64,000 nt of DNA from the NCBI RefSeq assembly GCF_003991155.1, contig NZ_CP031293.1, one strand, 5' to 3'. Below are positions 1,066 to 57,852 of this stretch, piece by piece. The position numbers and the translations under genes were made by a program. The notes beneath the pieces are model-generated. The model was not told where the DNA came from. It did not search any database and worked only from the letters and a program-made list of their open reading frames with translations. Source of the stretch: Escherichia coli (lineage in GTDB: Bacteria; Pseudomonadota; Gammaproteobacteria; Enterobacterales; Enterobacteriaceae). Position 1 is the first letter of the stretch. Each line of letters starts with the position of its first letter.

Positions 1066-1088
1066 AAGATGCATTTAAAATGCATCTT
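1066..1088. promoter_or_regulatory. NsrR operator (11-1-11 inverted repeat aagatgcatttaaaatgcatctt) in ytfE promoter
   Basis: Near-perfect palindrome seen in sequence about 27 bp upstream of the ytfE ATG; matches the known NsrR box of the ytfE promoter (established knowledge). Confidence 0.6.
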
Positions 1089-1114
1089 ATCTTATTAAGA
1101 ATGAGGTATCAGCT

Positions 1115-1777
1115 ATGGCTTATCGCGACCAACCTTTAGGTGAACTGGCGCTCTCTATTCCTCGCGCTTCGGCTCTGTTTCGTAAATATGATATGGATTA
1201 CTGCTGTGGCGGTAAGCAGACGCTGGCGCGCGCGGCGGCACGTAAAGAACTGGATGTTGAGGTCATTGAAGCCGAACTGGCAAAGCTTGCTGAACAACCG
1301 ATTGAGAAAGACTGGCGTAGCGCCCCGCTGGCGGAAATCATCGACCACATTATTGTGCGCTATCACGATCGCCATCGCGAGCAGCTGCCGGAGCTGATTC
1401 TGCAAGCGACTAAAGTCGAGCGCGTTCACGCCGACAAACCGAGCGTGCCAAAAGGGCTGACAAAATACCTGACTATGCTGCATGAAGAGCTTTCCAGCCA
1501 CATGATGAAAGAAGAGCAGATCCTCTTCCCGATGATCAAACAAGGCATGGGCAGCCAGGCAATGGGGCCAATCAGCGTAATGGAAAGCGAGCACGATGAA
1601 GCGGGTGAACTGCTGGAAGTAATCAAACACACTACCAATAACGTCACACCGCCGCCGGAAGCCTGCACCACCTGGAAAGCGATGTATAACGGCATTAATG
1701 AACTGATTGATGACCTGATGGAGCACATCAGCCTGGAAAATAATGTGCTGTTCCCGCGCGCACTGGCGGGTGAGTGA
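1115..1777 (+). CDS. ytfE: Iron-sulfur cluster repair di-iron protein YtfE (RIC)
   Basis: 220-aa ORF beginning [33 protein letters not shown], recognised as YtfE/RIC; hemerythrin-like His/Glu motifs. Confidence 0.92.
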
Positions 1778-3234: not shown

Positions 3235-3542
3235 GTTTTTTTCTTCCTGTACCTGTCTGTGTTGTTCAGGCTCTACGGCCTTTAGTCAGTCTATGATACG
3301 ACGAATCTGTATCGGGACTCATCGATATTAGGTAACAATACGCGGGATGAATACTAAGATTTAGATCTAATGTTAATTTTATGTTTAAAGTAAGTGTCAT
3401 ATCACGGTGATAACGCGAAACAGCTCACAAAAATACACGCTTACAGGGTCTTTGCAACATAAAATAGCGCCGTTTGGCAAACTGAAGGAGTTATTGCTGA
3501 ATGCCTGCTCCCCTCTGGTTCGAAGGGAACAGAATGCGCTGC

Positions 3543-4380: not shown

Positions 4381-5019
4381 ATGCCCGGGCGCTTTGAACT
4401 AAAACCAACCCTGGAGAAAGTCTGGCACGCGCCGGACAATTTTCGCTTCATGGACCCGCTGCCGCCGATGCATCGTCGGGGGATCATTATTGCCGCCATT
4501 GTATTGGTAGTCGGATTTCTGCTTCCATCTGATGATACGCCCAACGCGCCAGTGGTGACGCGTGAAGCGCAGTTAGATATTCAGTCGCAATCACAACCAC
4601 CGACAGAAGAACAGCTGCGGGCGCAATTAGTCACGCCACAAAATGATCCTGATCAGGTGGCTCCGGTCGCTCCAGAACCAATACAGGAAGGCCAGCCAGA
4701 AGAGCAGCCGCAAACCACCCATACGCAACCATTCCAGCCAGATAGCGGAATTGATAATCAATGGCGCTCCTATCGTGTCGAACCCGGTAAAACGATGGCG
4801 CAGCTGTTCCGCGACCACGGACTGCCCGCTACCGATGTCTATGCCATGGCGCAGGTAGAAGGCGCGGGTAAGCCGCTGAGTAATTTGCAAAACGGGCAGA
4901 TGGTGAAAATCCGCCAGAACGCCAGCGGCGTGGTGACGGGCTTAACCATTGATACGGGGAATAATCAACAGGTCCTGTTTACCCGCCAGCCGGATGGCAG
5001 TTTTATTCGTGCGCGGTAG
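4381..5019 (+). CDS. ytfB: Cell division protein YtfB (OapA/LysM-like C-terminal domain)
   Basis: ORF 4345..5019; start set at [23 protein letters not shown] to give 212 aa; Pro/Gln-rich linker then C-terminal OapA-like domain. Confidence 0.8.
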
Positions 5020-5650
5020 ATGAAGGGTCAACCAAAAGCCAGCTAAGGATTGTCTCTTTGATGACCTTACGTCTGGCTTCCAGTGCCTGGGGTGAAACCA
5101 TACTGATGTGATAAACCAGGCCAAGCGTATGCTGGTTGATCAAATAATATCCCCCAAGCGCAGCAATATTAATATTCACCTGCAATGGGTCGATATCTGG
5201 CTTAAAAATATTGTGTTTCTTCCCTTCATCCAATAAGGATTCCATTAACTGCAAGTGCGCATGGTTAATTTCTAAAAGACGCTGTGACTTTGCATAATGC
5301 ACACCCTTACTTTGATTTTCACTATGCACAATTTTTAAAAACCAGGGATTAGAAATATAATAATCCCATGTAAAATCGATTATTTTCTCAATGGCTTTCT
5401 GTGGCGGAAGATCTGAGAAATCAAGGGCCTTTTCTTTTTGTCGAATATCGTTCCAGGTATATTCCAGTACTTCGATAAATAAATTTTCTTTATTACCAAA
5501 GTGGTGATAAACCGTCTGTTTACTGCACCCTGCTGCCTTGACAATATTATCGACTCTGGCCCCTTCGTAACCATATTCGGCAAATTCATTAACCGCGCAT
5601 AACAGCAGCTTTTCTTTCAGGCTCTGTACGTTGCTGGTATCAAGATACAT
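5003..5650 (-). CDS. TetR/AcrR-family transcriptional regulator, divergent from the catabolic operon
   Basis: N-terminal HTH signature ([28 protein letters not shown]) typical of TetR; start set at [11 protein letters not shown] (215 aa); AT-rich coding sequence; 3' end overlaps ytfB by 17 bp (convergent). Possibly the intact counterpart of the K-12 ytfA fragment (from memory, unverified). Confidence 0.8.
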
Positions 5651-5862
5651 AACGCTTCCCCACGACCTCTTCGTGGTGACTATCATAACCTGATTTGATT
5701 TCAGCTTCAGAAAAAAGGGCAAAAACTTGTACTTTCATCAGGTTATCAAATGTCCTGTGATCGCCATCGCATATCAACCAACTAGATGGTTGATCTTTTT
5801 ATCATCCAGTCGCAAGCTAATCATCACCAAGGAAACAAAATTCAAAAAAAGAGAGCTATTGT

Positions 5863-6654
5863 ATGAAATCCACTCGTCCTGTTGCCGTGATTACCGGAGC
5901 CGCTCGTGGTATTGGAAAGGGCTGTGCGCTGGAGCTTGCGCGTGGCGGATTTAATCTGCTGATTAATGATCGTCCGGATGCGGATAGCGTAGAAAAATTA
6001 CATGCCACACAACAAGAATGTCTGGCGGAAGGCGTGGAAGTGATTTGCTTCCCTGCTGATGTGGGCGATCTCTCCCTTCATGAAGAGATGCTCGACGCGG
6101 CGCAAAACCAGTGGGGACGTCTGGACTGTCTACTCAACAACGCAGGCATTTCAGTGAAAAAACGCGGTGACCTCCTCGACCTCGAACCAGACAGCTTCGA
6201 TCAAAACATTGCCATTAACACCCGCGCGCCGTTCTTCCTTGCTCAGGCATTCAGTAAGCGCTTACTGGCACAGCCGAAACCGGAAGCAGAACTGCCGCAC
6301 CGCTCGATTATTTTTGTCAGTTCCATCAACGCCATCATGCTGGCGATGAATCGCGGCGAATATACCATTGCCAAAACTGCCGTCTCCGCCGCAGCTCGTC
6401 TGTTTGCCGCTCGCCTTTGCAATGAACAAATTGGCGTTTATGAAGTGCGCCCTGGTCTCATCAAAACTGATATGACTATTCCGGCAACGGCTTATTACGA
6501 CGAACTGATTGCCAAAGGTCTGGTGCCGTGGGGACGTTGGGGTTATCCGGCTGATATTGCTTCCACTGTCCGCGCGATGGCGGAAGGTAAACTGATTTAC
6601 ACCTGCGGTCAGGCGGTTGCCATCGACGGCGGCTTAAGTATGCCGCGCTTCTGA
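5863..6654 (+). CDS. Short-chain dehydrogenase/reductase (SDR) family oxidoreductase
   Basis: 263-aa ORF with N-terminal TGAARGIGKG Rossmann motif and SDR-like catalytic region; first gene of the operon. Confidence 0.85.
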   Translation: MKSTRPVAVITGAARGIGKGCALELARGGFNLLINDRPDADSVEKLHATQQECLAEGVEVICFPADVGDLSLHEEMLDAAQNQWGRLDCLLNNAGISVKKRGDLLDLEPDSFDQNIAINTRAPFFLAQAFSKRLLAQPKPEAELPHRSIIFVSSINAIMLAMNRGEYTIAKTAVSAAARLFAARLCNEQIGVYEVRPGLIKTDMTIPATAYYDELIAKGLVPWGRWGYPADIASTVRAMAEGKLIYTCGQAVAIDGGLSMPRF

Positions 6655-6663
6655 GGCTGAATC

Positions 6664-7506
6664 ATGAGAGATCTGTTACAACGCCCGGATTTATTCAGTA
6701 TCAATACCGCAACACTGGGCTATAAAACGCCGCTACCCGCCATTATTGATGCCTGCGCCGCACGCGGTATTGGCGCAATTGCCCCCTGGCGCAGGGAGTT
6801 GCAGGGTGAAGATCTCCAGCAAATCGCCCGCCAGCTTGCTGCCAGTAACATAAACGTTTCCGGTTTGTGCCGTAGCACCTACTACACCGCACCGACGCTG
6901 GCGGAGCGCAAACTGGCGATTGACGATAACCGCCGGGCGCTGGACGACGCCGCTGTACTGAACGCTGCCTGTTATATGCAGGTGGTTGGCGGTCTGCCAA
7001 TGGGAACAAAAGATCTGTACGAAGCGCGGGAACAGGTGAAACAAGGGATTCGCCAGTTGCTGCCACATTCGAAAGATGTCGGTGTGCCAATTGCACTGGA
7101 GCCACTGCACCCGATGACTGCTGCCGATCGTTCTTGTCTGTGCACGTTACGTCAGGCGCTGGACTGGTGTGATGAACTCGATCCCGATGGCGAATTTGGC
7201 CTCGGCGTGGCGGTAGATGTCTACCATGTCTGGTGGGATCCGGATCTCGCCAGTCAGATCCTGCGTGCCGGAAAACGCATCCTCGCGTTTCATGTTTCCG
7301 ACTGGTTAGTGCCGACCACCGATCTGGTCAATGACCGTGGAATGCCGGGAGATGGTGTCATCAATATTCCGTCAATTCGTCGGCTGGTTGAAAACGCCGG
7401 ATTTAATGGCGCTATTGAACTGGAAATATTCTCACCGTATTGGTGGCAGCAAGATATTGACAGCACACTGGATATTAGCGTCGATCGCATCGCGCATTAT
7501 TGCTAA
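6664..7506 (+). CDS. Sugar-phosphate isomerase/epimerase-like TIM-barrel protein (xylose isomerase-like fold)
   Basis: 280-aa ORF; resembles the AP-endonuclease-2/xylose-isomerase-like TIM-barrel family (hydroxypyruvate isomerase, dehydroshikimate dehydratase, IolE-like). Family call from memory. Confidence 0.7.
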   Translation: MRDLLQRPDLFSINTATLGYKTPLPAIIDACAARGIGAIAPWRRELQGEDLQQIARQLAASNINVSGLCRSTYYTAPTLAERKLAIDDNRRALDDAAVLNAACYMQVVGGLPMGTKDLYEAREQVKQGIRQLLPHSKDVGVPIALEPLHPMTAADRSCLCTLRQALDWCDELDPDGEFGLGVAVDVYHVWWDPDLASQILRAGKRILAFHVSDWLVPTTDLVNDRGMPGDGVINIPSIRRLVENAGFNGAIELEIFSPYWWQQDIDSTLDISVDRIAHYC

Positions 7507-7515
7507 GGAATAATC

Positions 7516-8292
7516 ATGAGTGACCAACCCGTTCTGTTCAGCAGAGCGGCGGCTTCTTGCCGCCTGACATTGAACCGTGAAGATAAATGTCATGCTATTA
7601 ATGAAGAAATGATCGAATCTCTCGACCATTATTTAAATGAAATTGAAAATGACACGGCATTACGCTTAGTCGAATTAACGGCAACCGGCGATAAATTCTT
7701 TTGTGCGGGCGGCGATATTAAATCGTGGTCGGCCTATTCGCCATTAGATATGGGCAGAAAATGGATTAAACGCGGTAACGAGGTTTTTAATCGCCTGCGC
7801 AATTTACCCCAATTAACGGTTGCAAATCTCAACGGTCATACCATTGGCGGTGGGATTGAACTCGCCTTGTGCTGCGATATTCGTATTGCCCGCCCCGGCG
7901 CGAAATTCTCTAACCCGGAAGTGATGCTCGGCATGGTGCCTGGCTGGATGGGCATTGAACGCGTGCTTAATCAGGTTGGCCCGGTGGTCGGTCGCCAGAT
8001 GCTGATGCTGGGTAAACGCCTGACGGCGCAGGAAGCTCAGGCGGCGAATTTAATTGATGAAGTGGTAGAAAAAGAACAGGTGGAAAGCTGGATGGCGAAT
8101 CAGTTAGCGCAGCTGGAAAAATGCGGTCCGGTGGCGCTCGCACATATCAAGCAACTGATTCTGGCACTGGAAAATAAACATGCTGATTACCCGCACCAGT
8201 TACTGGCTGGATTAATGTCCGCCACTCAGGATTGCCAGCAGGCGACGCGCGCCTTTGCCGAAAAAAGTAGCGTGAGCTTCCAAAATCAATAA
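7516..8292 (+). CDS. Enoyl-CoA hydratase/isomerase (crotonase) family protein
   Basis: 258-aa ORF with crotonase-fold hallmarks (FCAGGDIK, GHTIGGGIELALCCDIRIA oxyanion-hole region). Confidence 0.85.
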   Translation: MSDQPVLFSRAAASCRLTLNREDKCHAINEEMIESLDHYLNEIENDTALRLVELTATGDKFFCAGGDIKSWSAYSPLDMGRKWIKRGNEVFNRLRNLPQLTVANLNGHTIGGGIELALCCDIRIARPGAKFSNPEVMLGMVPGWMGIERVLNQVGPVVGRQMLMLGKRLTAQEAQAANLIDEVVEKEQVESWMANQLAQLEKCGPVALAHIKQLILALENKHADYPHQLLAGLMSATQDCQQATRAFAEKSSVSFQNQ

Positions 8293-8301
8293 GGAAATTG
8301 T

Positions 8302-9843
8302 ATGCGTAAGATAACAACCACCGAGACACTGGCGGCGCAAATTCAGGACGGCGCAACCATTGCCATTAGCGGTAATGGCGGCGGAATGGTGGAAGCGGAC
8401 CATATTCTGGCTGCTATTGAAGCGCGTTTCCTGCAAACCGGACACCCGCGCGATCTGACATTAATCCACTCGCTGGGCATTGGCGATCGCGACTGCAAAG
8501 GCACTAACCGCTTCGCTCATGCAGATATGCTCAAACGCATCATTGCCGGGCACTTTACCTGGTCGCCCAAAATGCAGGCGCTGGTAAAAAATAACACGAT
8601 TGAAGCCTACTGCTTTCCTGGTGGCGTGATTCAGGCACTGCTACGGGAGATCGGCGCCGGACGTCCGGGGCTTTTTACCCACGTTGGGCTGGGATCGTTT
8701 GTTGATCCACGCAATGGCGGCGGTAAGTCGAATGAATGCACGACCGACGACCTGGTAGAACTGATTGAAATCGATGGTGAAACCAAACTTCGTTATCGCC
8801 CTTTCAAAGTGGATTACGCGATTTTGCGTGGCACTTATGCCGATCCACGAGGCAACGTCAGCCTCGAAGAAGAGGCGATTGATATGGATAGCTATTCGAT
8901 GGCGCTGGCAGCACACAACAGCGGCGGCAAAGTGTTCGTACAGGTACGCGATGTGCTGGAAGCTGGCGCGATTGAACCACGCCGGGTCAAATTACCGGGC
9001 ATTCTGGTTGATGGCATCGTTGAACACCGCGAACAACCGCAAACCTATCTTGGCGGTTACGACCTGACCATTAGCGGTCAACATCGCCGTCTGAGTTCTA
9101 ACGACGCTATTGAACTGGTTAGTCATCCAGTACGCCGCCTGATTGCCCGTCGGGCAGCACGCGAACTGGTGGCTGGCGCTTCAACCAACTTTGGCTTTGG
9201 TATTCCTGGCGGTATTCCAGGCGTAGCGCTGCGCGAAGGCGTTCCTTACCAAAGTTTATGGCTGAGCGTCGAGCAAGGTGTACATAACGGCATGATGCTG
9301 GATGATGCGTTCTTCGGCTGCGCCCGCAACGCCGACGCCATTATTCCATCACTCGATCAATTTGAGTTCTACAGTGGCGGAGGGATCGATATCACCTTCC
9401 TCGGCATGGGAGAGATGGATCAGTACGGTAACGTCAACGTCTCCCATCTCAATGGCAATCTGATTGGCCCCGGCGGATTTCTCGAAATTGCGCAAAACGC
9501 CCGTAAAGTGGTGTTCTGCGGCACGTTCGACGCCAAAGGTAGCAAGATCGATGTAACGCCAGATGGCTTGCATATCGCCCAGTCAGGTCAAATCCCTAAA
9601 CTGGTTACCCAGGTGGAAAAAATCACTTTTAGCGCCGCCTACGCACAGCAAAGCGGTCAGGAAGTGTTGTATATCACTGAACGTGCAGTATTCCAGTTAA
9701 CGGCAGAAGGCGTTGAATTAATTGAAATCGCACCGGGTGTGGAGATTGAGCGCGACATTCTGCCGTATATGGCTTTCCGTCCAATTATCAAGCACCCACG
9801 CCTGATGGAAAGTAGCCTGTTTACGCCGATGGAGGATGCATGA
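8302..9843 (+). CDS. Family-I CoA-transferase (acyl-CoA:acetate/3-ketoacid CoA-transferase, YdiF/Pct-like, fused subunits)
   Basis: 513-aa ORF; shares conserved blocks with E. coli YdiF and propionate CoA-transferase (FVDPR, YITERAVF, LIEIAPGV) as recalled from memory. Confidence 0.8.
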   Translation: MRKITTTETLAAQIQDGATIAISGNGGGMVEADHILAAIEARFLQTGHPRDLTLIHSLGIGDRDCKGTNRFAHADMLKRIIAGHFTWSPKMQALVKNNTIEAYCFPGGVIQALLREIGAGRPGLFTHVGLGSFVDPRNGGGKSNECTTDDLVELIEIDGETKLRYRPFKVDYAILRGTYADPRGNVSLEEEAIDMDSYSMALAAHNSGGKVFVQVRDVLEAGAIEPRRVKLPGILVDGIVEHREQPQTYLGGYDLTISGQHRRLSSNDAIELVSHPVRRLIARRAARELVAGASTNFGFGIPGGIPGVALREGVPYQSLWLSVEQGVHNGMMLDDAFFGCARNADAIIPSLDQFEFYSGGGIDITFLGMGEMDQYGNVNVSHLNGNLIGPGGFLEIAQNARKVVFCGTFDAKGSKIDVTPDGLHIAQSGQIPKLVTQVEKITFSAAYAQQSGQEVLYITERAVFQLTAEGVELIEIAPGVEIERDILPYMAFRPIIKHPRLMESSLFTPMEDA

Positions 9844-11921
9844 GCCAGCTTGATGACACCCTCCTTGATGCGCTGACACACGTCACTTTCCCAAAGGGTT
9901 TTGTGTCAGCAGAGCCAGCGTCAATTGTCACGGTTGAAGATGTCGATTACCCGATCTGGCAAGTTGATGCGCTAGTCGTTGGTAGCGGCGCAGCAGGATT
10001 ACGTGCGGCAGTTGAACTTAAACGCCGCCAGCAAAATGTGCTGATCGCCACCGCCGGGTTATATATGGGGACATCGGCATGTTCTGGCTCTGATAAACAG
10101 ACGCTGTTTACCGCCGCTACCGCGGGCAACGGCGATAACTTCGCCAAACTGGCGGAAGCACTGGCGAGCGGTGGGGCGATGGATCATGACACCGCTTATG
10201 TCGAAGCGGTAGGTTCTCTGCACACTCTTGGCGGGTTGCAATATCTTGGTCTGGAATTACCGGAAGATCGCTATGGCGCGATTCTTCGTTATCAAACCGA
10301 CCATGACGAAGCCGGGCGTGCAACCTCGTGTGGGCCGCGTACCTCAAGGTTAATGGTGAAAGTGCTGTTGGAAGAAGTACAGCGCCTCGCCATTCCAGTG
10401 TTGACCAGTGCAACAGTGATTAAACTGCTGCATCAGCGTGACGAAAACGGCGAAGACCGTGTGGCGGGGGCAATCCTCGCGACCGGTCATCGCGCCCTTA
10501 ACCCATGGGGGCTGGCAATTGTGACTGCGCCCAATGTGGTACTGGCAACAGGAGGGCCTGGCGAGCTTTATCGCGACAGTGTGTACCCACACAAATGTTT
10601 TGGCTCGCTGGGGCTGGCGCTGGAGGAAGGCCTGACACTAACTAATCTGACCGAAAGCCAGTTTGGTATAGGCACGCCGCGCAGCACGTTTCCGTGGAAT
10701 TTGTCCGGCACCTATGTGCAGGTGATCCCATATATCTATTCCGTGGATGCTGAGGGTAACGAGTATAACTTCCTCGCGGATTACTATCGCACCACCCAGG
10801 AGCTGGCTTCAAACATCTTCCGTAAAGGCTATCAGTGGCCGTTCCACGCCACGCGGGTAATGGATTTTGGCTCCAGCTTGTTAGATATGGCGGTGGCGCA
10901 AGAGCAGCAATCAGGGCGTCAGGTATTTATGGATTTCAATCGTAATCCTGTAGCGGTGCCTGGTGATTTGCCCTTCTCATTAGATCGACTGGACGACGAC
11001 GTTCGCGCGTATCTGGAAAATAACGACGCTCTGGCACCATCGCCCATCGAACGACTGCAACGAATGAATCCGCTGTCTATCTCGCTGTATAAGATGCACG
11101 GTTACGATCTCACCACGCAGCCATTGCAGTTTGCCATGAATAATCAGCACATGAATGGCGGCATTGAAGTCGATATCTGGGGACAAACATCTCTGCCCGG
11201 TTGTTTTGCAGTGGGGGAAGTTGCTGGCACACACGGCGTCACCCGACCTGGCGGCGCGGCGTTGAATGCCGGGCAGGTTTTTGCTGTTCGTCTGGCGCGC
11301 TTTATTGGTTGCACGCAAAAGCGGAATATTGATGGAGATATTGCACAGCTGGCAGCTCCGGCACTGGCTTCTATAAGAGAGATCATTACTCAGGCGCACG
11401 ATAACGGGACCGGGATGCCGTTGTCGATTGTGAGAGAAAAAATTCAGGCACGAATGTCTGACTATGCGGGATTTATTTGCCATGCCGATAAAGTTCGACG
11501 TGCCACTCGTGATGCCCTGCTATTGAGTGAATTTGTCCAACAGCATGGATTGGCAATCAAACATGTGGGCGAAGTTGCCGAGCTGTTTATGTGGCGGCAT
11601 ATGGCACTGACTTCTGCCGCCGTATTAACGCAATTGACGCATTATATTGACGCAGGTGGTGGTAGCCGGGGAGCACGTATTATTCTCGACAGTGATGGAA
11701 ATTCTATTCCGCAAACACGAAATGGTTTTTGTGATGCCTGGCGCTTTCGTTCAGAGCGTACTGAGGATAAAAAAGATAAACTACTTATTCATTATTGCAA
11801 CGGTATCTTTCACGTCAGAGAAACACCTGTTCGTGAGTTTCCTATTATCCGAGGTATTTGGTTTGAAAAAAACTGGCCTGGTTTTCTTAATGGGACAATT
11901 TACCAGCCACAGGATGAATGA
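9840..11921 (+). CDS. FAD-dependent oxidoreductase (fumarate reductase/succinate dehydrogenase flavoprotein-like superfamily), 693 aa
   Basis: Dinucleotide-binding motif VVGSGAAGLRAA near the N-terminus and a second glycine-rich FAD motif (AVGEVAGTHGVTRPGGAALNAG); ATGA overlap with upstream and downstream genes; the last ~90 codons are encoded by AT-rich DNA. Confidence 0.75.
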   Translation: MSQLDDTLLDALTHVTFPKGFVSAEPASIVTVEDVDYPIWQVDALVVGSGAAGLRAAVELKRRQQNVLIATAGLYMGTSACSGSDKQTLFTAATAGNGDNFAKLAEALASGGAMDHDTAYVEAVGSLHTLGGLQYLGLELPEDRYGAILRYQTDHDEAGRATSCGPRTSRLMVKVLLEEVQRLAIPVLTSATVIKLLHQRDENGEDRVAGAILATGHRALNPWGLAIVTAPNVVLATGGPGELYRDSVYPHKCFGSLGLALEEGLTLTNLTESQFGIGTPRSTFPWNLSGTYVQVIPYIYSVDAEGNEYNFLADYYRTTQELASNIFRKGYQWPFHATRVMDFGSSLLDMAVAQEQQSGRQVFMDFNRNPVAVPGDLPFSLDRLDDDVRAYLENNDALAPSPIERLQRMNPLSISLYKMHGYDLTTQPLQFAMNNQHMNGGIEVDIWGQTSLPGCFAVGEVAGTHGVTRPGGAALNAGQVFAVRLARFIGCTQKRNIDGDIAQLAAPALASIREIITQAHDNGTGMPLSIVREKIQARMSDYAGFICHADKVRRATRDALLLSEFVQQHGLAIKHVGEVAELFMWRHMALTSAAVLTQLTHYIDAGGGSRGARIILDSDGNSIPQTRNGFCDAWRFRSERTEDKKDKLLIHYCNGIFHVRETPVREFPIIRGIWFEKNWPGFLNGTIYQPQDE

Positions 11922-12418
11922 TATTGCAAAGGTTAATCACTATGCGAAATATAATTAGATCTATTAATGCTCTACTTGCAGCATTGAACATTACCATTTT
12001 GGCGATCATCGTGGCATGTGTGACGTGGCAGGTGGCTGCACGATTTATATTTACTAGTCCCAGTATTTTTACAGATGAACTCAGCCGTTTGCTCTTTATT
12101 TGTCTTGGACTTTTTGGTGGGGCATACACCGCAGGGCAAAACCGGCATCTGGCGATTGACCTGATACCTATGATGCTGAAAGGAAAAGCCCGACGTCATT
12201 TATTTTTGTGTATTCAGATTATCGTTATTATCTTCGCTACCATCATTATGGTATATGGTGGTGGGCTATTAACGATGGATACATTCGATTCAGGTCAGAC
12301 CTCGCCCGCTTTAGGCTGGCAAATGGGATATATCTATATGAGCATCCCGATGAGTGGTGTACTTATTATTATATACACCATAGATATGGTTTTAACCGAA
12401 CTTAAACAACCACTCTAA
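11918..12418 (+). CDS. TRAP transporter small permease subunit (DctQ-like)
   Basis: 166-aa hydrophobic ORF with about 4 predicted TM segments directly upstream of a DctM-like gene; an alternative start at the internal MRNIIRS is possible. Confidence 0.75.
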   Translation: MILQRLITMRNIIRSINALLAALNITILAIIVACVTWQVAARFIFTSPSIFTDELSRLLFICLGLFGGAYTAGQNRHLAIDLIPMMLKGKARRHLFLCIQIIVIIFATIIMVYGGGLLTMDTFDSGQTSPALGWQMGYIYMSIPMSGVLIIIYTIDMVLTELKQPL

Positions 12419-12460
12419 AGATAACAAACAACAACCAACCATAGTAGGAATGGAGAAATT

Positions 12461-13762
12461 ATGGATTACTGGTTACCGATTATTGTGTTATTTGGTGCCT
12501 TCTTTTTTATGTTGGCATTAGGTGTACCTATTGTTTATGCCATTGGTTTATCGACACTGGCATCAATTTCCACACAACTCGATTTCAACTCAGCATTGAG
12601 TGTGGTTTCCCAAAAGTTAGCCTCCGGGTTAGATAGTTTTACGTTGTTGGCAATCCCATTTTTTATCTTGTCTGGCAACATTATGAATCATGGAGGAATA
12701 GCGCGACGATTAATCAACTTTGCCCGTATTCTCGGCGGTCGTCTGCCAGGCTCACTTGCCCACTGTAATATTCTCGCCAATATGCTGTTCGGGGCAATTT
12801 CTGGTTCAGCCGTGGCTTCGGCGGCTGCGATGGGCGGCGTCATGCATCCGCAACAGGTTAAAGAGGGCTACGACCCGGCATTCAGTACTGCGGTTAACGT
12901 TGCCTCTGCCCCGACGGGTTTGCTTATTCCACCAAGTAATACGTTAATCGTCTATTCACTGGTCAGTGGTGGTACTTCTATTGCCGCACTGTTTCTGGCG
13001 GGTTATGTTCCGGGAATTTTGCTGGGTCTGGCACTGATGGTAATAGCCGGTATTATCGCGGTACGTCGCGGTTATCCAAAGCCAGAACGCCCGACTTTAC
13101 GCCAGGCTGGCGTTGCGATATGGATGGCTATCCCCAGTATTTTCCTGATTATTTTAATTATGGGGGGTGTATTAAGTGGTATTTTTACCCCGACAGAGGC
13201 CTCCGCAATTGCAGTAATTTATACCCTTTTCCTTGCACTGGTTCTTTATCGTGAAATCTCAGTTAAAGATTTACCTAAAATATTTCTGGAATCCGTTATT
13301 ACCACTGCAATTGTCTTGTTATTAATTGGTTCTTCGATGGGAATGTCATGGGCGATGTCAAACGCTGACGTTCCCTTCCTGATTCTCGATTTGCTTAACA
13401 CTATTTCTGACAACCCAATAATAATCCTGCTTATTATCAATATTATCCTGTTGATTATCGGCACTTTTATGGATATGACACCGGCGGTACTGATTTTTAC
13501 GCCGATATTTTTACCGGTTGTCACCGAACTGGGCATGGACCCGATTCACTTTGGTATTGTCATGGTACTGAACATGTGTATCGGTATTTGTACTCCGCCT
13601 GTAGGCAGTGTGTTATTTGTCGGTTGTAGTGTATCTAAATTACCGATTAATAAAATTATCAAACCTATGCTGCCATTTTATGCCGTGATGGTATTGGTGC
13701 TGGCAATGGTGACCTATATTCCGCAAATCAGTATGGCATTGCCAAGAGCACTGGGTTACTGA
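12461..13762 (+). CDS. TRAP transporter large permease subunit (DctM-like)
   Basis: 433-aa polytopic membrane protein with DctM-family features; AT-rich. Confidence 0.88.
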   Translation: MDYWLPIIVLFGAFFFMLALGVPIVYAIGLSTLASISTQLDFNSALSVVSQKLASGLDSFTLLAIPFFILSGNIMNHGGIARRLINFARILGGRLPGSLAHCNILANMLFGAISGSAVASAAAMGGVMHPQQVKEGYDPAFSTAVNVASAPTGLLIPPSNTLIVYSLVSGGTSIAALFLAGYVPGILLGLALMVIAGIIAVRRGYPKPERPTLRQAGVAIWMAIPSIFLIILIMGGVLSGIFTPTEASAIAVIYTLFLALVLYREISVKDLPKIFLESVITTAIVLLLIGSSMGMSWAMSNADVPFLILDLLNTISDNPIIILLIINIILLIIGTFMDMTPAVLIFTPIFLPVVTELGMDPIHFGIVMVLNMCIGICTPPVGSVLFVGCSVSKLPINKIIKPMLPFYAVMVLVLAMVTYIPQISMALPRALGY

Positions 13763-13814
13763 TGCGCATTCACTGGCGGCACCTGCCGCCATATTTATTA
13801 GAAAAGGAACATCT

Positions 13815-14786
13815 ATGAAAATAAAAGTATCCGCTGGCATTATCGGTGCTGTTCTTATGTTATCCGCAAGCCAGTCCTGGGCAGTGACATTAAAACTGAG
13901 TCATAATCAGGATAAGTCTCATCCTGTTCATAAAGCGATGGAGTTCTTTGCGAAAAAGAGCAAAGAGTACTCTAACGGTGATATTACTATTCGTATTTAT
14001 CCAAATGGAACATTGGGTACTCAACGAGAAACAATGGAGCTGATTCGTTCTGGCGCTATTCCACTGGTAAAAACCAACGCGGCAGAAATGGAAGCATTTG
14101 AAAATTCCTATAAATTATTTAGCCTGCCTTATTTGTTCCGCGATCGTGATCATTATTATCAGGTCATGCAGGGCGATATCGGGAGAAAAATCCTCGACTC
14201 AACGAAAAGCAAAGGTTATTTCGGGCTGACTTTTTATGATGGAGGCGCCCGCAGTTTCTACGGCAATAAACCAGTACTGAAACCAGACGATCTCAAAGGC
14301 ATGAAAGTCCGTGTCCAGCCAAGTCCTGGCGCAGTTGAAATGATCAAAGTCATGGGCGGTAACCCGACGCCACTGGATTACGGCGAGTTGTATACAGCCT
14401 TACAGCAGGGTGTGGTCGATATGGCAGAAAACAGCGTGATGGCGCTGACCACCATGCGTCACGGTGAAGTGGCAAAATCCTTCAGCCTTGACGAACACAC
14501 TATGGTTCCCGATGTGGTTCTGATGAGCAATGCTGCGTTTGATAAACTTAGCCCGGAAAATCAGGCAGTTATATTAAAAGCAGCTAAAGAATCAATGAGC
14601 TACATGAAAGACTTGTGGAGCGAGGAAGAGAAACAAGAATTTGCAAAACTGGATAAAATGGGCGTGAAAGTCTACCAGGTAGATAAAGCTCCGTTTATCG
14701 AGAAAGTACAGCCAATGTACGCAAACTTCGCTAAGGACAACCCAGCCCTTGCCCCAATGCTGGCTGATATTCAGGCAGCTAAGTAA
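13815..14786 (+). CDS. TRAP transporter periplasmic solute-binding protein (DctP/YiaO-like)
   Basis: 323-aa ORF with signal peptide (MKIKVSAGIIGAVLMLSASQSWA) and DctP-family sequence; last gene of the operon. Confidence 0.85.
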   Translation: MKIKVSAGIIGAVLMLSASQSWAVTLKLSHNQDKSHPVHKAMEFFAKKSKEYSNGDITIRIYPNGTLGTQRETMELIRSGAIPLVKTNAAEMEAFENSYKLFSLPYLFRDRDHYYQVMQGDIGRKILDSTKSKGYFGLTFYDGGARSFYGNKPVLKPDDLKGMKVRVQPSPGAVEMIKVMGGNPTPLDYGELYTALQQGVVDMAENSVMALTTMRHGEVAKSFSLDEHTMVPDVVLMSNAAFDKLSPENQAVILKAAKESMSYMKDLWSEEEKQEFAKLDKMGVKVYQVDKAPFIEKVQPMYANFAKDNPALAPMLADIQAAK

Positions 14787-14842: not shown

Positions 14843-14877
14843 CAAAAGCAAAACGCCGACCAATGGTCGGCGTTTTT
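14843..14877. terminator. Bidirectional rho-independent terminator between the TRAP operon (+) and rplI (-)
   Basis: GC hairpin cgccgacc-aat-ggtcggcg flanked by an A-run upstream and a T-run downstream, read directly from the sequence. Confidence 0.6.
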
Positions 14878-31320: not shown

Positions 31321-31400
31321 ATATTATTCCATATAAATTAAGTTTAAATATTAATAAAATGAATATTTGCAGTACGTAATTATCTTACCAGCTATAGACA

Positions 31401-34748: not shown

Positions 34749-35174
34749 TCACTCCACCAGCAATAATTTATAAAGCGGTTGATTCTCTTCAACCAAATCG
34801 GCAAGCGTGTAGTTATCCAGTTCCGTAAGAAAACTTTGCACGGCCTTAGAAAGCGCCTGTTTCAACCGACAGGCAGGTGTAATGTGGCAAAACTCACTGC
34901 TGCAATTCACCAGCGATAAGGGCTCCAGCTCGCGCACCACATCACCAATACGTATCGCACTCGCCGGTTTACCCAGACGAATGCCGCCATTTTTTCCACG
35001 AACAGCAGTCACGTAGCCGGCACGACTAAGTTGATTGATTATTTTGACCATATGATTACGGGAGACGCCGTAGACGTCAGTCACTTCAGAAATACTGGTC
35101 ATCCGCCCTTCAGGCAATGACGCCATGTAGATCAGCGCACGTAATCCGTAATCAGTGAAACTCGTTAACTGCAC
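34749..35174 (-). CDS. nsrR: Nitric-oxide-sensing transcriptional repressor NsrR (Rrf2 family)
   Basis: 141-aa [53 protein letters not shown]. Confidence 0.92.
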
Positions 35175-35378
35175 ATCAACCTCAAAAGGGAAATCGGGAA
35201 AAAATACATTTATATTGATGATAAACCAGCCACAAGCTGTGTCGCTAATTTATTTCAGTTCGGGGAAGGAAAAAAGCGAGGATTTAACACTGTGTCGGAA
35301 AGCGTAATGGCTTAACCGACACAGCAATGTATCACACTGTTAGCCCGGCAGGCAAAATATCTGCCAGGCGTACCAGAA

Positions 35379-45312: not shown

Positions 45313-47291
<1,979 letters not shown>

Positions 47292-55311: not shown

Positions 55312-55660
55312 GGTTTTGTAGCCGGATAGTCTCATCCGGCTCACCAACAAAACAGATAGCGCAGGGAAAACTGCCACAGCCAATAGAAGAGCATTATTGA
55401 AATAACAAAATATTGCCAAAGAGAGTGCTGTTTCTTCCAAATAACAGCATAAATATATGGGATGAATAATGGTAAGGTCATTATAATACCAACTGGGCGA
55501 ATATCATCATTCTCAAGATATGTCATAACATCACAAACATTATTAATTCCTCTACCGTCGATAAACCACTCTTTGTCTTGAACAGATAAAAAATCTATCC
55601 AAAATATGCTTATAACAAACCAGATAAGGTTAAGGGAAAATGATTTCCAGTTCATCATAG
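55240..55660. repeat. Segmental duplication copy A (mscM 3' end + terminator hairpin + yjeO)
   Basis: DNA-level similarity to 57440..57852 read directly (e.g. acggtaaacaaacggggagaacgctgacgtctgcggg versus acggtaagcaaacggggtgaacgctgacctctgcggc; shared aaggttttgtagc.ggat.gtctcatccggc hairpin). Boundaries approximate. Confidence 0.6.
55341..55658 (-). CDS. yjeO: Small inner membrane protein, YjeN/YjeO paralog family (copy adjacent to mscM)
   Basis: 105-aa ORF with 2-3 TM segments; paralogous to the ORF at 57538..57852 (conserved DKEW, YLENDD, IMTLPLF, YWLWQF, LRY.FC blocks); start overlaps the upstream 237-aa gene (ATGA). yjeO versus yjeN assignment is from K-12 gene order (memory). Confidence 0.7.
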   Translation of the reverse strand: MMNWKSFSLNLIWFVISIFWIDFLSVQDKEWFIDGRGINNVCDVMTYLENDDIRPVGIIMTLPLFIPYIYAVIWKKQHSLWQYFVISIMLFYWLWQFSLRYLFCW

Positions 55661-56368
55661 ATTATTCATTATTTTCATTAAAGCAGTTTTCTTTTCAAGA
55701 ATACGTCGACCATATTCACTGTATTCTCTCTGATGGGATCCTTTCGGTGCTGCAATGGAGTCTATAATATCTTGTTTATTTCTTTCAATACCACGGTTGT
55801 ATCGGGAGCCGACTACAATTAACTGCTCATCCGTTAAATTAGTGGTGTCACCTATTTCCGGATAGTCATAATGTATAAGGTCTCGTAAATGAAATGCTAC
55901 CACTCTAATGTTGAAGCGGTCATTTAGTAAGCACTGGGAAAGTTGGAACTGCTCAAAGGATGACAAAAGATCTGGATGTATCCCTATAGTCCTGGCTGCA
56001 ACGCCTAACTGTATTGCGACAGAACCGACTGAAGTAGAGTTTGAGTAGGTATTGCCTCCTCTCTTTGAAACGGCCTCTAGGATTATTTTTAATTGCAGCA
56101 CCCCCACTGGTTTAAATCTTTCTGGCATTCCGCCAACCTCAGCAGCCGCAACGCCCGCAAGTAATAATAACGGGATTTGCGCCTCTTTGGCATATTGCCA
56201 CAACATATCACGGTGATAAATCAACCATGATGTTTTATATAACCATAAGTGTGCAGTCCCCGTGCTGAATGTCCAATTAGTCGGAAGAAAACGCCATCGA
56301 AAATAATCAATGCCATTCCATTTAGGAAAGCCTAATTCATCAACTTCGCAAAAAATAAGATTATTCAT
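55655..56368 (-). CDS. Hypothetical protein, 237 aa, tentative lysozyme-like (GH23/SLT-like) motifs; no signal peptide
   Basis: Intact ORF with AT-rich composition; ordered motifs AAAEVGG ... GSVAIQLG ... NIRVVAFHL ... VGSRYNRG resemble the E-S / G-L-M-Q / A-Y-N-x-G blocks of lytic transglycosylases (manual inspection only); translationally coupled to yjeO. Confidence 0.55.
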   Translation of the reverse strand: MNNLIFCEVDELGFPKWNGIDYFRWRFLPTNWTFSTGTAHLWLYKTSWLIYHRDMLWQYAKEAQIPLLLLAGVAAAEVGGMPERFKPVGVLQLKIILEAVSKRGGNTYSNSTSVGSVAIQLGVAARTIGIHPDLLSSFEQFQLSQCLLNDRFNIRVVAFHLRDLIHYDYPEIGDTTNLTDEQLIVVGSRYNRGIERNKQDIIDSIAAPKGSHQREYSEYGRRILEKKTALMKIMNNL

Positions 56369-56510
56369 TTAAAGTCCCTTATTAAAATCATTCCCAGAAT
56401 GAAGAATAGTACTATCATCAGAAAAACTGATTTGTGATGGGACAGACAAAAAATATAAAAAAGGGTTCGACTTAAGATAATCAAGATAAAACATATATAC
56501 CCAATAAACC

Positions 56511-56939
56511 TCAAGATGCGGGTGTGAGCACCTGAAAGTGATCGTTAATTCGGGATGTCAGAGAGTCCGCTATATCCGGCAGCGTCTGGTTAAAAAAGAC
56601 AGAAAAACGGGATACATTATATTCATGAATGGTTTTATATTCGCAGATTAGCGGTGACGTCAGTGCTTTCAGATTCAGCGCCCCCATGATATTCAGGCGT
56701 GTGCGGCAGCCTGTTGTTTTTACTGCTTTTTTCTGGCCTTTACGTATCCAGCCATAGCTGATTTTAGTGGCCTGAGTCGGATGGACTCCATCAATAAAAA
56801 GAACCGGTTCATCACCCACAGTTATTTTCAGTTCCTCATAATATTCAATGAATTGCCTTTGTTTCTCTTCACTGAATTTATGGGGGACGCCTGACGGTTT
56901 TTTGTAGGTGAAACCATTACGATGCAGCCACTTATTCAT
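56511..56939 (-). pseudogene. IS630-family transposase fragment (C-terminal part)
   Basis: 142-aa ORF MNKWLHRNGFTYKKPSGVPHKFSEEKQRQFIEYYEEL, separated by a frameshift or gap from the N-terminal fragment. Confidence 0.6.
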
Positions 56940-57031
56940 CCCCGGAATGCTGAAAATGATGTTCCATGTCCGGGTGATAAACGCAATAACATCGCGGGTA
57001 TGGTGAAATAAATTATCGGATAACTGGCTGA

Positions 57032-57328
57032 TTAAAAGGCCGTTTGTTCAGCACTGAGTTTGCTGTCTGAGCCGCCGTTTTCGGGCTTCAGTTTTCCTTT
57101 ATTCAGGAATTCGCTGATATGGTGATCAATCGTTGTCTGATGCAAGCGTAAAGCCTGAGCAATCATGGCAGAACTCCAGCCTTCGGAAACCAGAAGAATG
57201 GCTTTAATACGATCTCTGACTCGCCCGTCACGACTGGAATCATGAAGGCGTTCAAGTTCAGCTTTTTGTTGCTCAGTAATGAATATTTTCATGTTGGACA
57301 GCATGATCTTCTGTTGCTGAAAAATCAA
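57032..57328 (-). pseudogene. IS630-family transposase fragment (N-terminal HTH part)
   Basis: 98-aa ORF with HTH region; no contiguous reading frame with the downstream fragment. Confidence 0.6.
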
Positions 57329-57439
57329 GCATCTTCAATGATCACGGGTATATAAGGTGAATATTTATTGTTTTTAATATAAAAATCGCTTGCCCAACTT
57401 ACAGAGTGACTGCAAGCTGGATAATATACTCGTCATACT

Positions 57440-57852
57440 TCAGAACGGTAAGCAAACGGGGTGAACGCTGACCTCTGCGGCTAAAGCGCGCCAGGACGGC
57501 GGTATATAAGGTTTTGTAGCAGGATGGTCTCATCCGGCTACAAACAAAACTGATAGCGCAGAAAAAACTGCCACAGCCAGTAGCCGAAAATCACAAGCGC
57601 GGTGGCATACATAAACCAGCCGCGTTTTTTTCGCCACAAAGCGAACCAGAGAAAAGGGAAAAAGAGCGGTAACGTCATTATCACACCGACATCGCGGGTA
57701 TCATCATTTTCCAGATACTCCAGCACATGGCAGATATTTTTAACCCCACCTTCATCAATCATCCACTCTTTGTCCAGCGTGGAAGTGATGACTATCTAGG
57801 GGATCGCTACAACAAACCAGATGCAGCATAAGACAAACGTGCGCGCACTCAT
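57440..57852. repeat. Segmental duplication copy B (fossil of mscM 3' end + hairpin + yjeN)
   Basis: See copy A; copy B carries about 60 bp homologous to the last codons of mscM although no mscM gene is adjacent. Boundaries approximate. Confidence 0.6.
57538..57852 (-). pseudogene. yjeN: YjeN/YjeO-family small membrane protein with in-frame TAG at codon 19 (possible pseudogene or 74-aa N-truncated product)
   Basis: Reading from ATG at 57852 gives MSARTFVLCCIWFVVAIP-stop(TAG, 57796..57798)-IVITSTLDKEWMIDEGG...; the stop aligns with a Trp in the paralog at 55341..55658; ORF track reports only the 74-aa downstream frame 57538..57762. Confidence 0.5.

Follow-up and report, generated by a model that had tools for sequence, protein, structure and literature searches.

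The ytfE locus and its inverted repeat

The window, which is the whole 64-kb stretch of Escherichia coli DNA analysed here, is 100% identical over its first 25 kb to E. coli 2016C-3878 and several other strains. In RefSeq, an E. coli genome of 100% identity is annotated with the names ytfF and ytfE and the gene order ytfF-ytfE-cycA-fklB-ytfB ... rplI ... ula ... rnr-nsrR-purA ... hfq ... frd. The product of the ytfE open reading frame matches the equivalog model NF008221 with 417.3 bits (cutoff, 254) over residues 1–219 of 220 and TIGR03652 with 269.8 bits (cutoff, 204.7); judged by these family models, it is full-length YtfE. A GC-rich hairpin with a T-run on the minus strand (GCTGGATGGCGCAATGCCATCCAGC, 1785–1809) lies in the gap where ytfE and cycA converge and is an ordinary terminator. 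The features on which the analysis turns are as follows.

1036–1051, no strand: candidate NarL/NarP site of the 7-2-7 type, inferred and weak in the strain studied
1066–1088, no strand: NsrR operator AAGATGCATTTAAAATGCATCTT, an 11-1-11 inverted repeat read directly as AAGATGCATTT-A-AAATGCATCTT
1066–1076, plus strand: left 11-bp half-site AAGATGCATTT, from the half-site weight matrix and listed as a ytfE half-site in Table 2 of Mehta 2015 (PMC5320621)
1078–1088, minus strand: right 11-bp half-site, reading AAGATGCATTT on this strand, from the half-site weight matrix; G at 1082 completes the symmetry
1076–1081, plus strand: predicted –10 hexamer TAAAAT at the operator centre (dyad), a 5/6 match to TATAAT by sequence reading
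1101–1108, plus strand: ytfE ribosome-binding site ATGAGGTA with a GAGG core at 1103–1106, the GAGG being invariant in 110 species (mean, 1.80 bits)
1115–1777, plus strand: ytfE, encoding the di-iron protein YtfE/RIC of 220 amino acids (NF008221; RefSeq annotation)
34749–35174, minus strand: nsrR, encoding an Rrf2 family repressor of 141 amino acids, with a GTG start (NF008240)

The preliminary description of this DNA had placed an 11-1-11 palindrome at 1066–1088, just upstream of ytfE. On re-reading, the palindrome is present: a repeat finder returns two arms of 11 nt that are 100% complementary and separated by a 1-nt spacer, and 26 nt lie between its end and the ATG at 1115, so both the repeat and its placement were described correctly. 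An approximate-match search finds the 23-mer only once in the 64-kb window at up to three mismatches. When the window is searched for perfect inverted repeats irrespective of motif, with arms of 11 nt or more and a spacer of 0–3 nt, two come up: the operator and a repeat at 14850–14876. The operator palindrome is thus real, exactly placed and far above chance. The idea that it is a functionless accident of AT-rich intergenic DNA has nothing on its side except the general AT-richness of intergenic regions; the 23-mer at up to three mismatches is matched 0 times in 100 dinucleotide-preserving shuffles, and first-order Markov simulations give only 0.125 such perfect repeats per window. Together with the conservation described below, this makes an accident so improbable as to be negligible.

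The weight matrix used to score the palindrome was derived from Table 4 of Mehta et al. 2015 (PMC5320621), which lists 27 NsrR sites of the 11-1-11 type in E. coli CFT073. The ytfE site and one duplicate were removed, and the remaining 25 sites were symmetrised. Since ytfE was left out of the training set, the scan of its site is not circular. The ytfE operator scores 31.42 of a possible 31.60 and exceeds all 25 training sites (12.2–26.8), and both of its half-sites score 15.66 bits against a maximum of 15.77 with an 11-bp half-site matrix that was likewise built without ytfE. Such a scan had been named in advance as the test of the assignment, with a poor score counting against it; the score is nearly the highest that the matrix allows.

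After the ytfE operator, the highest score in the window is 13.46, which is no better than the average maximum of 200 simulated windows (13.75 ± 2.48), so that the window contains exactly one full NsrR site. Three candidates were rejected because they lie at or below this chance maximum: 46652–46674 inside nnr (13.46), 31345–31367 between rlmB and yjfI (12.23) and 3356–3378 upstream of cycA (12.00). Half-sites show no excess either, with 7 in the window at 12 bits or more against 6.3 ± 2.6 expected and 25 at 10 bits or more against 27.0 expected. A check for further sites near other genes, also proposed in the preliminary description, has thereby been carried out, and neither full sites nor half-sites in the 64-kb window exceed chance. 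Several chance-level matches of 9–11 bits fall in an AT-rich patch at 55341–57763, which holds a frameshifted IS630-family transposase pseudogene (56511–57304), two YjeO-family genes and one hypothetical gene.

The operators of hmp, hcp-hcr, ygbA, yeaR-yoaG and tehA have the same 11-1-11 design with the same AAnATGyATTT half-site, and they likewise lie in promoter regions of nitrosative-stress genes. These other enterobacterial sites are imperfect, scoring 12–27 bits against 31.4 for ytfE with the same matrix, and the ytfE site, which is the closest to consensus, is the strongest operator in the NsrR regulon.

Conservation of the operator and its promoter context

To keep the collection independent of the operator itself, ytfE loci were gathered through the coding motif DMDYCCGG, which lies 75 nt into the gene. 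This yielded 114 stretches from Citrobacter, Enterobacter, Klebsiella, Salmonella, Kluyvera, Kosakonia, Raoultella and other genera. The ytfE start was fixed at the conserved M-(A/S/T)-(Y/F)-R-D codon, and the 110 distinct upstream regions were aligned with MAFFT. Across these 110 species the palindrome averages 1.79 bits per column, as compared with 1.80 for the Shine-Dalgarno sequence, 1.61 for the first five codons, 1.12 for the immediate flanks and 0.46 for the distal intergenic region. In practically every species, the operator begins 47–49 nt upstream of the ATG. Sites scoring 18 bits or more occur between –55 and –44 from the ATG in 112 of the 114 ytfE loci (112 sites), and none occurs outside this interval in the 1.03 Mb of ytfE loci. 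This recurrence at a fixed distance from the ATG, with absence elsewhere, refutes the reading of the palindrome as a chance occurrence.

The operator occurs in 33 variants, and the changes are confined to positions 3/21, 4/20, 7/17 and 10/14, which are the degenerate positions of the motif and include the variable positions 4, 7, 14, 17 and 20. In the 110 species, the pair formed by positions 7 and 17 is C-G in 51, C-A in 48, T-G in 8 and T-A in 3, and pairing is lost at 4-20 in 26% and at 10-14 in 22%. The two arms therefore vary independently, which is the signature of a site for a dimeric protein and not of an RNA helix.

This pattern bears directly on the possibility that the palindrome acts as RNA, either as the terminator hairpin of the ytfF transcript or as a structured element in the ytfE 5' leader. 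The stop codon of ytfF, at 1007, lies 59 nt upstream of the palindrome, and a terminator scan does flag 1066–1088 as a stem of 10 pairs with a 3-nt loop and the tail ATCTTATTAA. The RNA fold of the palindrome has a free energy of –10.7 kcal/mol (z = –2.98 against shuffles), but this says little because any perfect palindrome folds. The stem is AU-rich, with G-C in 3 of its 10 pairs, and the tail has no real U-run, so that the structure falls short of an intrinsic terminator. Pairing is not maintained in evolution, as the C-A form breaks pair 7-17 in 48 of the 110 species and the compensatory T-A form appears in only 3, whereas the invariant operator bases fit a protein motif derived from unrelated promoters. 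Moreover, most of the hairpin would be absent from the ytfE mRNA if transcription starts near 1088. A function of the palindrome as RNA is therefore very unlikely.

A site that serves chiefly another DNA-binding protein, such as IscR or another Rrf2 regulator, FNR or Fur, with its likeness to an NsrR operator being secondary, is even less likely. Rrf2 proteins are paralogous, and the NsrR of the window weakly matches the IscR, RirA and CymR models; in addition, ytfE promoters appear to hold at least one more conserved upstream element. However, the weight matrix was built from NsrR ChIP-seq-derived sites alone and the operator matches it essentially maximally, an NsrR ChIP-seq peak sits on the identical sequence in CFT073 (Mehta 2015, PMC5320621), and inspection of the palindrome reveals no FNR (TTGAT-N4-ATCAA) or NarL heptamer pattern.

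An NsrR operator at this position would lie over the core promoter of ytfE. A consensus sigma-70 promoter scan calls no promoter upstream of ytfE, and no acceptable –35 hexamer was found there. The best –10 candidate inferred from the sequence is TAAAAT at 1076–1081, inside the operator; in the 110 species its positions 1076, 1077, 1080 and 1081 never vary, and 1079 is either A or T (TAAAAT/TAATAT). A possible alternative –10 hexamer lies at 1088–1093, reading TATCTT in the window and TATATT in most species. Conservation extends beyond the palindrome over 1089–1093 (consensus, ATATT), with hardly any change at A1089 and T1090; base 1091 of the window is a minority C, with A in 90% of species. 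This segment could be the start-site region or the alternative –10 (TATATT). With either placement, the operator would cover core promoter DNA, and a start of transcription near 1088 would leave a leader of about 26 nt containing the GAGG. The NsrR ChIP-seq summit in CFT073, at –50 from the ytfE start codon, agrees with a promoter location of the operator. The abstract of Bodenmiller & Spiro 2006 reportedly places the repeat over the –10 element in the promoters of ytfE, hmpA and ygbA. The literature searched, from which the primary mapping papers of 2006 and 2009 were absent, contained no statement of an overlap between the ytfE operator and its promoter.

NsrR repression of ytfE and variation in the control region

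The palindrome is almost certainly the operator by which NsrR shuts off the ytfE promoter. In the proposed mechanism, a dimer of [4Fe-4S] NsrR, encoded at 34749–35174, would bind the two 11-bp half-sites, and the bound protein would cover the core promoter, with the –10 candidate at the operator centre, thereby blocking RNA polymerase by steric exclusion. Nitric oxide (NO) would nitrosylate the Fe-S cluster, NsrR would leave the DNA, and ytfE would be transcribed. Since YtfE itself produces NO from nitrite, the operator would also close a positive feedback loop. The sequence, motif score, uniqueness in the window, conservation, fixed position and gene identities were computed in this analysis, and operator occupancy, induction by NO or nitrate, and cluster chemistry are taken from the literature.

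The published work on the E. coli ytfE operator (in K-12: Rodionov 2005, Bodenmiller & Spiro 2006, Partridge 2009) concerns the same locus and the same position, with the same regulator family and the same neighbourhood, ytfF-ytfE-cycA. The site was predicted by comparative genomics (Rodionov et al. 2005, PMC1274295), and an involvement of the repeat in repression is mentioned there as a personal communication (PMC1274295). ChIP-chip of NsrR in K-12 is attributed to Partridge 2009, as cited in Mehta 2015 (PMC5320621). In CFT073, the ytfE operator is identical to that of the window base for base over the 23-mer; this 23-mer ranks first among the CFT073 NsrR sites (PatSer ln P, –25.13) and is ChIP-seq positive, the ytfE peak being enriched 9.65-fold and having its summit 50 bp away from the start codon, and nitrate-derived NO induces ytfE 69.6-fold (Mehta 2015, PMC5320621). 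NsrR in its holo-[4Fe-4S] form acts as a repressor when NO is absent, YtfE-derived NO nitrosylates NsrR, and ytfE is a consistent member of the NsrR regulon (Crack et al. 2022, PMC9052748). The ytfE promoter also serves as an NO biosensor in EHEC, where NO releases NsrR repression. The NsrR operator of ytfE is thus a correct finding that is already known and published. The site had been put forward as an internal positive control for reading motifs, and it performs as one: the operator withstands the tests of motif score, uniqueness, conservation footprint and absence of RNA covariation. Its value lies in this control, since a regulatory site and both of the genes that belong to it were recognised from raw sequence with exact coordinates. 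The additions to the published picture are modest, namely that the symmetric allele is in the minority, that the 64 kb hold no other NsrR site and that a second conserved element lies upstream.

The K-12 operator differs from that of the window by one base, with A in place of G at 1082; the K-12 site is GATGCATTTAAAATaCATC (Rodionov 2005 Table S2, PMC1274295). A1082 creates one arm mismatch, whereas G1082 gives full symmetry. The 31-mer around the operator (1062–1092) is found exactly in 979 complete E. coli genomes (~18%) and is one base off in 4,270. With A substituted at 1082, it has an exact match in 4,194 of the 5,415 complete genomes (~77%). In E. coli, full symmetry thus belongs to a minority allele of the operator, which CFT073 also carries. 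The operator had been called perfect, which is right for the strain studied but does not extend to E. coli generally, as K-12 and 77% of complete genomes carry A1082. In other genera, position 1082 is G in 54% and A in 46%. The two forms are less than 1 bit apart when scored with the weight matrix under a uniform background (31.0 for G and 30.2 for A).

A second conserved element accompanies the operator across Enterobacteriaceae. The block at 1036–1055, and 1041–1055 in particular, is conserved with the consensus ..CCCC.AAAGGGGTATATC, and within it G1046 and the TAT at 1050–1052 never change among the 110 species. In 62 of these the right heptamer conforms to AKRRGTA, and it reads AGGGTTA in the window; in E. 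coli the NarL/NarP-like block is degenerate. The centre of the NarL/NarP-like site would be about 44.5 bp upstream of the inferred start. By its pattern of conserved bases, this element is probably a NarL/NarP site. The prediction of a NarP site here dates from 2005, when a candidate was marked in the ytfE alignment (Rodionov 2005 Fig. S2, PMC1274295).

It may be proposed that the G/A difference at operator position 17 is a natural regulatory variant and that the conserved NarL/NarP-like block at 1036–1051 may make ytfE activator-dependent; this combined proposal is doubtful, with a small chance of being right. If true, the G/A variant could set a lineage-specific affinity for NsrR and hence the NO threshold or the basal level of ytfE. 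Given the scarcity of NsrR and the feedback of YtfE-derived NO on it, such a variant might even shift the set point of the whole regulon.

The nsrR gene and its spacing from the operator

The preliminary description had also placed nsrR at 34749..35174. These coordinates are exact: the predicted protein matches the equivalog model NF008240 over its full length (residues 1–141) with 293 bits against a cutoff of 182, and the RefSeq annotation of the 100%-identical E. coli genome also names this open reading frame nsrR. Among solved structures, S. coelicolor NsrR (5N07; E = 1.5e-19) is the best relative; Cys91, Cys96 and Cys102, the cluster ligands, are each matched by a cysteine in the alignment with it. 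The NsrR of the window is intact, with its Fe-S ligands present.

The operator and nsrR are 33.7 kb apart. That the window contains both the regulator and its target holds true, as both genes are identified, but their co-occurrence is without demonstrated meaning. NsrR acts in trans, and its sites are scattered over the chromosome, as judged by the coordinates in Mehta 2015 (PMC5320621). The spacing also depends on the strain, as the interval from ytfE to nsrR includes an accessory island of about 9.8 kb. Since NsrR sites occur chromosome-wide and the spacing varies by strain, the proximity of regulator and target, and the 33.7-kb distance itself, have no demonstrated role.

Autoregulation of NsrR has been shown in Vibrio vulnificus and in Streptomyces coelicolor, where sites of the same motif class for the same regulator family adjoin nsrR. 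The nsrR gene of the window differs from these in having one lone, unconserved half-site upstream, and autoregulation is unsupported. This NsrR-like half-site lies at 35201–35212 (AAAATACATTT / TAAATGTATTT; 13.4 and 11.9 bits), 27 nt upstream of the nsrR GTG, and AAAATACATTT at 35201–35211 is the third-best half-site in the window. For comparison, nsrR loci were gathered from metagenomes through the coding motif FTDYGLRAL, and orthologues with at least 75% identity gave 50 distinct enterobacterial upstream regions. In these regions the half-site columns carry 0.07–0.73 bits; neighbouring promoter blocks carry 1.3–1.8 bits, and the range over –58 to –43 and –83 to –70 is 0.9–1.8 bits. No promoter ChIP-seq peak at nsrR is listed in the CFT073 data (Mehta 2015, PMC5320621). 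Autoregulation through the half-site was therefore rejected, as its columns are unconserved and no such peak is listed, and the half-site is probably a chance match. In three non-enteric nsrR loci from metagenomes (L135, L162 and L192), the weight matrix does find NsrR sites scoring 18 bits or more immediately before nsrR, in keeping with the autoregulation known from Vibrio vulnificus. Since the matrix detects sites that adjoin nsrR there, their absence at enterobacterial nsrR is meaningful. The palindromes of NsrR type in these loci (L135:1717-1739, L162:4295-4317 and L192:877-931) score 18–27 bits and adjoin nsrR, unlike the enterobacterial arrangement.

The GTG start of nsrR is preceded by a conserved GAGG (35174–35183; loci L117–L235). 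The GTG is kept in almost all listed nsrR orthologues with at least 79% identity, the exceptions being one TTG and one truncated sequence with an ATG start. This conservation agrees with inefficient translation of nsrR, an idea credited to Chhabra & Spiro 2015.

The accessory island occupies approximately 5003–14786 between ytfB and rplI and is found in 3,153 of 5,426 E. coli genomes. Its genes encode a TetR regulator, a 3-ketoacyl-ACP reductase, a sugar-phosphate isomerase, an enoyl-CoA hydratase, a CoA transferase, an FAD-dependent oxidoreductase and a three-part TRAP transporter. The island is only 90–95% identical in 1,306 of the 3,153 genomes, a greater divergence than in the flanking core. 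Beside it, where rplI and the gene for the TRAP substrate-binding protein converge at their 3' ends, lies the other perfect inverted repeat of the window, the GC-rich palindrome AAAACGCCGACCAATGGTCGGCGTTTT at 14850–14876 with 13-nt arms, which has the shape of a bidirectional intrinsic terminator.
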